From the NCBI GenBank assembly GCA_963843375.1, contig CAWJKT010000015.1, positions 32,001-96,000 on the forward strand: a stretch of DNA of 64,000 nucleotides, given 5' to 3'. The DNA comes from an uncultured Pseudomonadota bacterium (GTDB taxonomy: Bacteria; Oederibacteriota; Muellerivitia; Muellerivitales; Muellerivitaceae). Positions 45,301 through 48,300 of the stretch are shown piece by piece. The stretch's first letter is position 1. Every line of letters begins with the position of its first letter. The position numbers were made by a program.

Positions 45301-48300
45301 TGCCATCGTCAGGGGTTGGTTATGCCTACCCGACCTGAAACTAAAACTATCCGTGAACTTGCCCATGGAAGCGATCAAGGGGACGCTTCTACTCACAATA
45401 ATTTGGGCGTATTTTATTATTCCAAAGGGATGTATGCCGAGGCCATAAAAGAATTTAAAACGGCTTTGGAAGTGGATCCGGAAAACAATCAAGCGCAAGA
45501 AAACTTGAAGGCCGTGAACCGTCATACAGGGCTTTATGATAGGTCGATCGAGGCTTACAAAAAATCAGTCCAAATGTTTCCCCAGGATGCCGAGGCTTAT
45601 TACAATCTGGCCAATGCATATCGTTATACCGGTCAATATGAAAAGGCCATCGAGGAGTATCGAAAGTCGCTCCAATTAAATCCGGACCATCCTTTTGCCA
45701 GGAATTATTTGGGGATTGCTAACAAATGCTTAGGCAGGTTTGATGAAGCACTGGCCGAATTTCGAAAGGCCATTGAAAAAAATCCTTTTTTTGCCGACCT
45801 TCATAATAATTTGGGCGAGGTTTATTATAAAAAAACTATGATCAACGAGGCATTGATCGAGTTTAAAAAAGCTATTTCCCTAAATCCTGATTATGCCATT
45901 GCCCATTACAATTTAAGTTTTGTTTATGGCGACAAAAATATGCTTCAAGAAGCGGAACGAGAATTCAAAAAAGCCGTAGATTTGAATCCGAATTTTGGTC
46001 AAGGATCACAGGCACTTTTGGCTATTGAACGCCCTAAAACCTTGGAAGAAAGGGTAGCGGAGAAAGTCGCAGCAAATCCCGCCGAACACAATGGAGTCGA
46101 TACTTATTTGAGCTTAGCTTCCGCATATAAAGGAAAGGGGTTATTGGACGAGGCTATTCGGGAATATAAACGGGCCATCGAGGCCGTTCCTGGACAAGAA
46201 AAACTTTATCGCGCCTTAGGAGAAATATATCTTGTTAAAGGGATGTTGGAGGACTCCTTAGCGGCTTCCCAAAAAGCCATCGAATTGGCTCCCAAGAATG
46301 TTGAAAACTATATTCAAACAGGGATTGCTTTAAGAGAACTTAATCGAACGGACCAAGCCGCAAAACAGTTTCTAACGGCCATACAAATATCACCTGGATC
46401 TAGTATGGGCCATTTTGAACTGGGAGTGACCTACTTTAAAATGGGTGAAAGTGAAAAGGCGACCCAACAGGTGCGGGAAGCATTGGAAATCGATCCTCAA
46501 AATGCCGAAGCCCATTATTATCTTGGAGTTTATTACTACAAAGTGAATTTATATGACGAAGCCATTCGTGAAATTTCACAAGCCATTGATTTAAATGTTT
46601 CTATCGCATCCAGCGCTGAAGCGTTGACCTATCTGGGATTGGCTTTATCCGATAAGGGACGGTTTGAGGAAGCGATCGCGGAATATAAAAAAGCGATGGA
46701 GTTTGACCCCAAAAATCCGATAATTCACAATAGCTTAGGAGTTGCTTACAAGAATGCAGGTATGATTCAAGAATCCATTGCACATTACCAAAAGGCCATT
46801 GAACTTAACCCCCAATACGCAAAAGCCTACAATAATTTAGGCGTTGTTTACTTTAAAATGAGCCAATACGAGAGGGCCATTGAAGCATTCAAAAAAGCGG
46901 TTGAAATTGAACCGCTTTATAAAACAGCGCAAAATAATTTGGCCGTTGCCCTGAAAAAGAAGAATGTCCTGTCGGAAGCATCGGAAGTTCTTATTAAACA
47001 AATTATGGCGGATCCCGAAAACGCTTCTCTCCATTTCAATTTAGGAATTCTTTATAAGAATACTGGGCAGTTTTTGGAGGCCGTTAGGGAATTTCAAGAA
47101 ACGGTTCGATTAGTTCCGAAGAATCGTGAGGCTCTTACAAATTTAGGTGAAGTTTATTTGAACTTGGAAATGTTGGATGATGCCATAAAGGTTTTGGCAC
47201 GCGCAGTGTCCTGTGATGTTCAATTTCCGGAAGCTCATTTACAACTGGGCAAGGTCTACATTCGGCGCAAATGGTGGGACGAGGCGCTAGTTGAACTTAG
47301 AAAAGCAGAGGAGCTTAAACCGGAATTGAATGAGGTTCATTTTTATTTGGGGCAGGTGTATAGGTTTAAAAGTTGGTGGGATGAAGCGGTTGTCGAGTTT
47401 CAGAAATATATGGACTCCCATAGCCCTGAAGAAGATAAGGTGATTCAATCGATTGACATGCTTCAACAGATACAAGTTTGGAAAAGAGAACTACAGATTT
47501 CTCCCAGCGCCGATAAATCGAAATTGATTAAATAGTAAGGATATTCATGAAATTGCTTGTTTGTATTATTTCGCCCAAAAAAATTGAACAAGTTAAAAAG
47601 ACTTTATGGGAAGCTGGAGTTCGAGGAGTAACCTTGTCGGAGGGGTATGGTTTTGGATATCAAAGGGTTCAGGTAGAAGCGATAAAAGGGGCGGATTATA
47701 AAGTCCAATACCAGCCGAGAATACGTGTTGAAATTGCATTGCCTAATAATGAAGTTGAAAAAGTGCTTGAACTGCTTTTGGAAACAGTCCGGACGGGTCG
47801 AATTGGAGATGGAAAATTCTTTATCTTACCTCTTGAGGATGCGATTCGTGTTCGCACGGGTGAACGGGGCGAAGGTACTCTTTAATAGGTTTTTATTGAT
47901 TGGCATAAAGCTTAAAATTTAAAAAGGTTTTCATTTTTCAACAAAACAATTAACATCAGTTTGGATCGGAACTACAAATTTATTCGTTTTTAGGGAGGGT
48001 GAAGTGGCACATCGAGTTATGCTCGTTGATGATGCGTCTTTCATGAGAATGATGCTGAAAAACATTCTTGTGGGATCCGGATATGAAATTATTGGTGAGG
48101 CTGAAAACGGGGCCAAAGCGGTTGAACAATATAAGAGCCTGAAACCGGATTTAACAATCATGGATATTATCATGCCTGAAATGGGTGGTATTGATGCGGT
48201 ACGGGAAATTGTAAAAATAAATCCTTCCGCAAAAATTCTAATGTGTAGCTCCATGGGTCAACAATCATTAGTGGTGGAAGCAATTCAAGCTGGGGCCAAA

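Follow-up and report, generated by a model that had tools for sequence, protein, structure and literature searches.

What would a P-II protein do inside a chemotaxis operon? P-II proteins count among the most widely distributed processors of metabolic signals, and their usual role is to pass the energy and nitrogen state of the cell on to metabolic enzymes; to our knowledge, their well-described targets all belong to nitrogen, carbon, or energy metabolism, whether as enzymes, as transporters, or as regulators of transcription. The locus considered here lies in a 64,000-nt stretch of contig CAWJKT010000015.1 (the window; all coordinates are positions within it) and places a P-II gene amid che genes, an arrangement that we did not find reported in the literature searched. 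Our preferred reading, to which we give a probability of about one-half, is that the product, che-P-II, belongs to a distinct clade that has become fixed, as an accessory subunit, in a chemosensory module of the Thermotoga/Bacillus type (CheA-W-Y-B-R-C-D), in which it would act as an adenylate sensor signaling via its T-loop to a TPR scaffold.

The P-II gene and its chemotaxis neighborhood

The genes run on one strand (+) in the order PilT-TPR, two unknowns, CheR, TPR, MshEN-type-CheW, TPR, P-II, CheY, CheC, CheD, CheW, CheY, CheB, CheA, CheC/X, and GGDEF. From CheR onward, the features are as follows.

42674..43531, + strand: CheR methyltransferase, at the 5' end of the block that genus g2 has lost in its entirety
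43458..44696, + strand: 412-aa TPR protein (TPR412), directly 3' of cheR
44700..45338, + strand: CheW with an N-terminal MshEN-type (c-di-GMP-binding-type) module, MshEN-CheW (Pfam CheW 62-196; NCBIfam NF053729 9-57)
45322..47535, + strand: 737-aa all-TPR protein (TPR739), with a conserved start MPTRPE at 45322
47536..47546, + strand: 11-nt spacer from the TPR739 stop to the P-II ATG, containing AAGGA
47547..47885, + strand: che-type P-II gene, 112 aa, ATG start, intact ORF, Pfam PF00543
48004..48366, + strand: CheY, first copy, always next after P-II
48403..49054, + strand: CheC phosphatase, in two ORFs owing to one surplus assembly base near 48847
49014..49496, + strand: CheD, with one surplus assembly base at 49487
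49547..49987, + strand: CheW, its end distorted by surplus assembly bases at 49938 and 49980
50051..50434, + strand: CheY, second copy
50465..51577, + strand: CheB (REC domain and methylesterase)
51650..53745, + strand: CheA (Hpt, dimerization, HATPase, and CheW-like domains), in four ORFs owing to surplus assembly bases
53693..54340, + strand: second CheC/CheX-type phosphatase
54489..55565, + strand: degenerate GGDEF-domain protein at the 3' end of the block, with the GGDEF motif substituted and an RxxD-type site (RRVD) retained

The ORF, the Pfam assignment, the structural match, and the neighbors bear out the initial annotation in its description of a 112-aa P-II inside a one-strand che cluster, and the translated ORF gives the same T-loop reading as was quoted there. 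Two details need correction: the gap between the TPR and P-II genes, given as 12 nt, is 11 nt (47536-47546), and what had been taken for an unknown gene separating cheC from cheD is the C-terminal part of CheC, put out of frame. Single-base insertions in this assembly account for the splits of CheC and CheA and for the truncations of CheD and CheW: at nine places (48847, 49487, 49938, 49980, 51885, 52164, 52250, 52404, and 53191), contigs from four public runs (two studies) have one base fewer. CheA of a same-genus relative is one intact ORF of 698 aa. We therefore reject CheA and CheC as pseudogenes, the surplus bases being absent from independent contigs. The P-II gene itself is identical in sequence between contigs of two public runs from two studies. 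PilT-TPR was also rejected as a member of the module, since it is retained, together with the two unknown genes, where the che block has been lost. A scan of 42400-56100 returned promoter-like and terminator-like sites at chance level (27 versus 25.5 expected and 19 versus 16.1 expected, respectively), with neither kind in the 118 nt between the end of the P-II gene and the start of cheY. The NF053729 match in MshEN-CheW scores 54.8 bits (cut-off 38), and the model of TPR739 comprises two helical solenoids (about 22-225 and 259-723) with a disordered linker between them. The source genome also bears a second CheA system.

The Pfam PF00543 (P-II) match of the 47547..47885 product covers residues 1-106 and scores 80 bits (cut-off 25), and the closest solved structure, 2eg1_A (E 2.8e-31), aligns without gaps over residues 1-110. 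The AlphaFold2 model (pLDDT 85.7) arranges its secondary structure as P-II proteins do (beta-alpha-beta-beta-alpha-beta), with T-loop residues 41-50 at low confidence. Its top Foldseek match is 3mhy_B (GlnZ; TM 0.83), and solved P-II chains range from TM 0.77 to 0.85. Searching a protein atlas with che-P-II returned generic P-II clusters only, and the protein scores below both of the NCBIfam equivalog cut-offs for GlnB/GlnK (NF007946, 99.2 bits versus 181; NF008111, 89.7 bits versus 202). Nine matches to the P-II family, eight of them above cut-off, are found in the source genome, including three in tandem and two within long open frames.

Inheritance and ligand site of the che-linked clade

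Within the order, 27 of 32 genomes have a che-P-II orthologue at 65-100% identity, every other P-II match being at or below 42%. It lies directly 3' of the TPR gene in all 26 of the other genomes with an orthologue and is followed by CheY in 25 of these, the remaining contig stopping after P-II. The conservation of gene order asserted in the initial annotation is thus stronger than had been claimed. Of all the module proteins, the first CheY is the most conserved (74-98% identity within the order). Across the phylum, P-II occupies the same che position in 66/99 species genomes, counts that do not represent independent events because the genomes are kin of one phylum. The TPR739 gene is present as a single copy in 61/99 and has P-II directly behind it in 61/61, followed by cheY-cheC-cheD. 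Full-length relatives of MshEN-CheW are found in 65/99 genomes, one or two genes 5' of P-II in every complete locus, and P-II is immediately followed by cheY wherever the contig is long enough to show it.

Genus g2 (G004, 99% complete, and G002) has lost everything from cheR to the GGDEF gene, P-II included, and keeps the flanking PilT-TPR-unknown-unknown and TopA genes. Neither the second CheC/CheX nor an orthologue of MshEN-CheW was found in any of the five P-II-less genomes of the order, two of them showing only weak CheW-domain matches at 26-28% identity. Elsewhere in the phylum, G093 (97% complete) is missing both the TPR gene and P-II and has kept the remaining module; family f10 (four genomes) has P-II between MshEN-CheW and cheY with no TPR739 gene; and family f21 has kept the CheR-TPR-MshEN-CheW trio without P-II. 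FlhA is still present in relatives without the che module.

In a tree of 153 rows, a single branch (SH-aLRT 94) sets apart all 65 che-linked P-II proteins, as one (SH-aLRT 95) did 34 in an earlier tree of 122 rows. Among at least 159 control loci with other P-II genes, four are che-linked, and all four belong to the che-P-II clade. Of the best 79 genome loci with other P-II genes, ranked by similarity, one has the module, and a genome of the phylum, G095, encodes the very same P-II protein. In the genome-contig search with P-II, two of 80 loci among the matches listed belong to the clade, and the other 78 served as controls. A metagenome scan with alignment A2 as the query gave three clade members in the 80 loci among the matches listed; these three are the che-linked ones, and residue 38 is hydrophobic in them alone. 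No case of che-P-II outside the module was found in the control loci among the matches listed, and none in a second phylum among the loci examined: L092, the one module locus labeled Spirochaetia by NCBI, has a P-II identical to that of G095. The proposal that a P-II paralogue was recruited as a fixed component of a chemosensory module is therefore well supported by the monophyly of the clade, its recurrent position, its loss with the che block, and the lack of such a context for the other P-II genes.

What the protein senses is a separate matter. Arg38 is a phosphate-contacting residue in canonical P-II. It is found in 0/69 clade members, all 69 having Y, F, I, V, L, or M at this position, as compared with the joint presence of Arg38 and Lys58 in 140/154 domains among the top library representatives. 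The product of 47547..47885 has Tyr38 and Arg58 instead of the canonical Arg38 and Lys58; it retains Gln39, Tyr51, the B-loop GDGK, and Arg101/Arg103, and its nucleotide-pocket set (G27/T29, G35, G37, G87-D88-G89-K90, R101, R103) is complete. In the che-linked members more generally, T29, G35, and G37 are present in 65/65 and D88, G89, K90, R101, R103, T104, and E106 in 64/64. Gln39 and Lys58, which in canonical P-II coordinate Mg and bond 2-oxoglutarate, respectively (PMC3198391), occur together in 11/69 clade members, and Lys58 is mostly replaced by Arg or Gln across the clade. Thus, of the ATP/ADP/2-oxoglutarate input envisaged in the initial annotation, the nucleotide part is supported by an invariant pocket, whereas the residues at positions 38, 39, and 58 speak against the remainder, and canonical Mg-ATP/2-oxoglutarate sensing by che-P-II is doubtful. 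Loss of Arg38 could weaken ATP binding too, and another nucleotide could be the ligand.

Tyr51 is kept in 43/65 che-linked members; the uridylylation-site signature around it (PROSITE pattern) is unmatched at its first Tyr and its A/E position because residues 46-51 of the 47547..47885 product read I-K-G-A-D-Y. GlnD was found above cut-off in none of five genomes checked.

One alternative is that P-II is merely cotranscribed with the che genes and that its targets are the usual ones of nitrogen or carbon metabolism, away from the module. Gene order is the one line of evidence for a che role, and the same genome has several other P-II genes along with their usual partners, as this alternative would have it. 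However, it leaves unexplained a clade-specific T-loop, the absence of Arg38 throughout the clade, the failure of the clade to appear outside the module among the matches listed, its loss together with the module, and the scores below both equivalog cut-offs, and we regard it as very improbable indeed.

Candidate receivers of the T-loop

The position of che-P-II, encoded between the accessory proteins (MshEN-CheW and the large TPR protein, the latter lacking in f10) and cheY, frames the mechanism that we favor, that of an adenylate sensor attached to the module. The P-II trimer would bind ATP or ADP and thereby give a readout of the energy charge of the cell, with Mg-ATP/2-oxoglutarate sensing of the canonical kind weakened or lost. 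The bound nucleotide would determine the conformation of the T-loop, which would dock on the 737-aa TPR scaffold encoded just 5', and the scaffold, with the neighboring MshEN-CheW, would relay the signal so as to bias CheA/CheY signaling.

Evidence from the genes themselves bears on the docking step. The first is spacing: from the TPR stop to the P-II start the median is 8.5 nt (n = 58 loci), with a 4-nt overlap in 9/58, versus a median of 46.5 nt from P-II to cheY. The second is the constraint on the T-loop. In families with the TPR gene, it is at least as conserved as the body of the protein (T-loop:body identity ratio 1.0-1.2), whereas in f10, which has no TPR gene, it is half as conserved as the body (0.30 versus 0.59) and two to three residues shorter. 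A lineage with a truncated TPR gene shows the same pattern, so that the relaxed T-loop is seen in one family and one further lineage. This points first to the accessory TPR scaffold, before any core Che protein, as the putative target of P-II. Nevertheless, TPR739 cannot be the sole partner, because the four genomes of f10 keep P-II without it; a second, T-loop-independent contact in the module, for instance with CheY or MshEN-CheW, is for that reason likely. G093, missing the TPR gene as well as P-II, fits such a partnership, although one deletion spanning both neighboring genes could account for it. A modeled complex of the TPR protein and P-II (alignments A3 and A1, respectively) scored 0.07 against a mark of 0.32, with P-II present as a non-native monomer and the controls not folded, and weighs neither for nor against binding.

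The persistence of P-II and cheY in f10 despite the absence of TPR739 also suits a different view, in which the direct target of che-P-II is a core Che protein (the CheA kinase domain, or CheY/CheC) and the TPR protein is a mere neighbor. P-II control of a histidine kinase is established, GlnB being known to bind NtrB, and the unfailing adjacency of cheY would follow naturally. The tighter spacing to the TPR gene, the divergence and shortening of the T-loop exactly where that gene is missing, and the presence in G093 of the core module without P-II all count against such direct action, which we consider unlikely.

Still less probable is a role in a c-di-GMP branch, whereby che-P-II would control the degenerate GGDEF protein or MshEN-CheW much as Azospirillum brasilense GlnZ does GGDEF/EAL enzymes. 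There is a precedent in that a diguanylate cyclase and a cyclase/phosphodiesterase were pulled down with GlnZ and aerotaxis was altered, as described in PMC7646526. Here, too, MshEN-CheW lies close by in all complete loci and a GGDEF-domain protein closes the block. Yet the latter is encoded 10 genes away from P-II and was not found in the fetched loci outside the order by tblastn with the source-genome protein as the sole query, and f21 has the CheR-TPR-MshEN-CheW trio with no P-II.

Returning to the adenylate sensor on a TPR scaffold, this reading can be carried further, with the odds now leaning somewhat against it: che-P-II may be the first P-II inside a chemotaxis pathway, an ATP/ADP-sensing trimer that clamps via its T-loops on a giant TPR scaffold in the receptor-kinase array, such that energy charge gates CheA/CheY in a receptor-less "energy taxis." More generally, the sequence comparisons suggest an undescribed route from the internal state of the cell into behavior within one uncultured phylum. 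If true, the P-II family would extend to the control of behavior, with a simple route from energy state to taxis bias, and TPR scaffolds and Che proteins would constitute a new class of P-II targets. The phylum also offers a natural experiment in the coevolution of a T-loop with its target, comprising f10, with no TPR gene and a decayed T-loop, and one genome in which both genes are missing, that for the TPR protein and that for P-II.

Relationship to known chemotaxis and P-II systems

The closest known chemotaxis systems are those of Thermotoga and Bacillus, of the F1 type in the nomenclature of Wuichet and Zhulin. The core set matches that of F1-type systems (CheA, CheW, two CheY, CheB, CheR, CheC, CheD, and CheC/X), from which the present module differs in having four conserved extras, namely, the two TPR proteins, MshEN-CheW, and P-II, and, in this order, in ending with a degenerate GGDEF protein.

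Compared with canonical GlnB/GlnK proteins (Escherichia coli GlnB and GlnK, A. brasilense GlnZ, Synechococcus elongatus P-II; PF00543), che-P-II is alike in its 112-aa length, the gapless alignment over 1-110, a ferredoxin-like fold that bears T-, B-, and C-loops, and the GDGK and Arg101/Arg103 residues. It differs in the absence of Arg38, the replacement of Lys58 in most members, and the sequence of the T-loop, and its gene sits in a che operon rather than beside amtB or glnA. A closer parallel may be drawn with specialized P-II-like proteins encoded beside their targets, such as GlnK with AmtB, SbtB with SbtA, and NifI1/NifI2 with the nitrogenase genes. Like these, che-P-II is a paralogue of dedicated role whose T-loop is modified and whose gene adjoins a conserved partner gene and is inherited together with it; however, where these have a transporter or a metabolic enzyme as neighbor, che-P-II has a TPR scaffold and CheY, within a chemosensory operon.

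In tying P-II to motility behavior and GGDEF-domain proteins, the nearest counterpart is A. brasilense GlnZ, for which PMC7646526 describes control of c-di-GMP enzymes and an effect on aerotaxis, with GGDEF as a candidate docking domain. GlnZ, however, is a canonical, general-purpose P-II working via enzymes encoded at scattered sites in the genome, whereas che-P-II is a dedicated paralogue and lies within a che operon.

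The P-II gene and its operon

Three genes of the operon are listed first, in window coordinates.

Features of the chemotaxis operon discussed in the text
45322 (ORF from 45316), + strand: TPR protein, 737 aa from the conserved start MPTRPE
47547-47885, + strand: P-II protein, intact ORF with an ATG start, 112 aa
54489-55565, + strand: GGDEF-domain protein, GGDEF motif absent and D-Q-N-K-Y in its place

The initial annotation had placed a P-II gene inside a che operon, and this is confirmed by the ORF, by its matches in Pfam and the PDB, by its modeled structure and by its neighbors. 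The product matches the Pfam P-II family at 80 bits (cut-off 25) and aligns without gaps to solved P-II structures (top match 2eg1_A, E 2.8e-31), with 41 distinct PDB sequences recovered at E <=0.001. Its AlphaFold2 model (pLDDT 85.7, with a low-confidence T-loop) has the strand and helix order of P-II, and GlnZ, GlnK, and cyanobacterial P-II superpose on it at TM 0.77-0.85. Its NCBIfam equivalog scores lie under both cut-offs (99.2 vs 181 and 89.7 vs 202). The genome of the window, an assembly of 32 contigs that is 80% complete, yields nine matches to the P-II family, eight of them above cut-off, and GlnD was found above cut-off in none of five genomes checked, four of which are 99-100% complete.

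Every gene across 38847-55565 lies on the + strand, in the order PilT-TPR, two unknowns, CheR, a 412-aa TPR protein, MshEN-CheW (a CheW with an N-terminal module of the c-di-GMP-binding MshEN type), the 737-aa TPR protein, P-II, and CheY, followed by CheC, CheD, CheW, CheY, CheB, CheA, CheC/X, and the GGDEF-domain protein. The next gene is TopA. The spacer from the TPR gene to P-II is 11 nt, and that from P-II to cheY is 118 nt. The AlphaFold2 model of the 737-aa TPR protein (pLDDT 86.5) is all-helical, with two solenoids (residues ~22-225 and ~259-723) and, between them, a disordered linker (228-256). The GGDEF-domain protein, which has no Pfam match in its N-terminal 200 residues, retains an RxxD-type site (RRVD) just upstream of D-Q-N-K-Y; the loss of the motif together with the retention of this site suggests that it could be a c-di-GMP receptor instead of a cyclase.

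CheA is split into four ORFs and CheC into two in the window. Against the intact 698-aa CheA of a same-genus genome, the window shows single-base insertions, several of them in A-runs, and one 4-base insertion. Against contigs from four public runs of two studies, it carries an extra single base at 48847, 49487, 49938, 49980, 51885, 52164, 52250, 52404, and 53191, which interrupt CheC and CheA and deform the ends of CheD and CheW. Because these independent contigs lack the extra bases, the breaks are errors of the window's assembly, and the reading of CheA and CheC as pseudogenes is ruled out. No extra bases were seen in 47400-48207 in the comparison with public-run contigs, and the P-II gene is identical in sequence in contigs from two runs, one from each of two studies.

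Gene order, co-loss, and control loci

Across the order Muellerivitales, an orthologue of the P-II protein at 65-100% identity is found in 27 of 32 genomes, all remaining P-II matches being at <=42%. In all 26 other orthologue-bearing genomes, the cluster is colinear and P-II directly follows the TPR gene; CheY comes next in 25 of these, the contig of the 26th stopping after P-II. We extended the comparison to 99 species genomes of the phylum Oederibacteriota; these genomes are kin, and all counts are within one phylum. A single-copy orthologue of the 737-aa TPR protein (E <=1e-90) is present in 61 of the 99, spanning 14 families, and in all 61 a P-II gene stands behind it: 27 in the order, 6 outside it, and 28 further ones that had escaped a search at E 1e-30 and were found by looking behind the TPR gene. 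The order CheR-TPR-MshEN-CheW-TPR-P-II-CheY-CheC-CheD persists despite divergence of the proteins to 40-48% (TPR), 28-37% (MshEN-CheW), and 38-55% (P-II) identity. In other families, an MCP lies inside the module between cheD and cheW (e.g., a 433-aa protein with HAMP and MCPsignal domains at 8428-9729 of locus L265); in the window's order, cheW directly follows cheD and the cluster has no MCP. One genome, G070, has two che-linked P-II copies on separate contigs (L146 and L147), which could reflect a duplicated module or a binning effect; one of them follows a TPR gene whose match to the 739-aa query is confined to residues 5-542.

P-II is also lost together with the module. In the five Muellerivitales genomes that lack the P-II orthologue, neither the second CheC nor an MshEN-CheW orthologue was found; two of them give only weak CheW-domain matches at 26-28% identity. 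In one genus (G004, 99% complete, and G002; loci L155 and L156), the block from cheR through the GGDEF gene is absent, P-II included, with the flanks retained: TPR, TMEM260-like, PilT-TPR, and the two unknowns on one side and TopA on the other. Thus, PilT-TPR is separable from the module and P-II is not. PilT-TPR and the two unknowns (137 and 349 aa; 38847-42643) were accordingly rejected as an obligatory part of the module, as they remain where the che block is deleted.

Among the matches listed, the module occurs at one of 79 genome loci bearing the most similar other P-II genes (43-50% identity), and the P-II of this one locus, L092, is identical to that of a genome of the phylum (G095). 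Six more of the 79 show isolated weak receiver-domain matches only. The NCBI label of L092, Spirochaetia, disagrees with the GTDB placement of G095 in the window's phylum. Of 80 metagenome loci, again among the matches listed, three are che-linked and the same three are the only ones with a hydrophobic residue 38; the remaining 77 have no che neighbors, and Arg38 is present in 75.

A separate P-II clade and its probable input

The che-linked proteins also stand apart in sequence. A tree built from 153 P-II rows (identical rows counted as one and one contig-end fragment omitted) places the 65 che-linked rows on the same side of one branch (SH-aLRT 94), and a smaller, 122-row tree does the same with 34 che-linked rows (SH-aLRT 95). 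A profile built from 33 che-linked sequences and searched against 1.84 billion cluster representatives recovered 14,707 P-II proteins at E <=0.001, with scores falling from 201 bits to a plateau at about 135-141 bits; among the best 150 of these proteins, Arg38 and Lys58 occur together in 140 of 154 domains, and just seven proteins look like the che type. Taken together as comparative evidence, fixed gene order, co-loss, the clade, and the controls give good support to the proposal that P-II is part of the chemosensory module.

The initial annotation had further proposed that the cell's ATP/ADP/2-oxoglutarate state is the input, of which the ATP/ADP part is supported and the 2-oxoglutarate part, in its canonical form, is doubtful. 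T29, G35, and G37 are kept in all 65 aligned che-linked sequences and D88, G89, K90, R101, R103, T104, and E106 in 64 of 64; a nucleotide pocket that does not vary speaks for binding of ATP/ADP. In GlnK, Lys58 is bonded by 2-oxoglutarate, and the Mg ion is coordinated by no protein residue other than Gln39 (PMC3198391). Arg38 is substituted in 69 of 69 che-linked sequences (in the 65 aligned: Y 35, I 12, F 11, V 6, L 1), and Gln39 and Lys58 occur jointly in just 11 of the 69 (position 58 in the 65: R 46, K 15, Q 4). That every member has lost Arg38, and most the Gln39/Lys58 pair, speaks against sensing of Mg-ATP/2-oxoglutarate in the canonical way. As judged from these residues, adenylate, not 2-oxoglutarate, is the probable input.

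The TPR scaffold as candidate partner and the relation to known systems

The 737-aa TPR scaffold is the best candidate for a direct target of che-P-II, because of tight gene coupling, constraint on the T-loop, and joint loss. The TPR stop and the P-II start are a median of 8.5 nt apart (n=58) and overlap by 4 nt in nine loci; between P-II and cheY the median is 46.5 nt and the minimum 15 (n=62). Where a family has the TPR gene, residues 38-56 of P-II, the T-loop, are conserved at least as well as the remainder, the ratio of T-loop to body identity being 1.12 in the order, 1.23 in family f8, 1.01 in f9, and 1.04 in f23. In a lineage with a truncated TPR gene, T-loop identity is 37% vs 68% for the body. 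In family f10 (genomes G065, G067, G068, and G066; loci L265, L266, L269, and L271), whose module reads CheR-TPR-MshEN-CheW-P-II-CheY and onward with the 737-aa TPR gene missing, the T-loop is two to three residues shorter and variable (30% identity vs 59% for the body). Joint loss is seen in G093 (97% complete), whose module has neither the TPR gene nor P-II, leaving 140 nt between MshEN-CheW and cheY (L270 6727-6869); the P-II genes left in this genome are of the GlnK and NifI types.

The retention of P-II without the TPR gene in f10 indicates that the TPR protein would not be its exclusive partner, and che-P-II likely plays another part in the module or makes another contact there. CheY adjoins P-II downstream in every locus whose contig extends that far; on the upstream side, MshEN-CheW is the first or second gene. 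In family f21 (G085 and G086; L267 and L268), only the trio of CheR, the 412-aa TPR protein, and MshEN-CheW is kept, followed by unrelated genes (phosphoesterase, ABC ATPase, SufBD-like, and HMGL-like). Mechanistically, the nucleotide state of che-P-II would set the conformation of the T-loop, which would dock onto the TPR scaffold, and the scaffold would then hand the signal to the CheA/CheW/CheY machinery.

With regard to output, the genome of the window has a second chemosensory cluster (G000 contig C16, about 37220-40213) with a 718-aa CheA, CheW, and an MCP, and FlhA is found even in relatives without the module. One of these, the 99% complete G004, has FlhA and a single CheW-domain match, with no match to the CheA dimerization domain or the MCP signaling domain; it may encode a flagellar or type III export apparatus yet lack a chemotaxis system.

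Our full-text literature search, which mostly did not reach subscription journals, found no paper that places a P-II gene within a che operon; in PMC8561660, P-II appears in the reference list only. The nearest published link is Azospirillum brasilense GlnZ, for which pull-down of GGDEF/EAL enzymes and an effect on aerotaxis are reported (PMC7646526).
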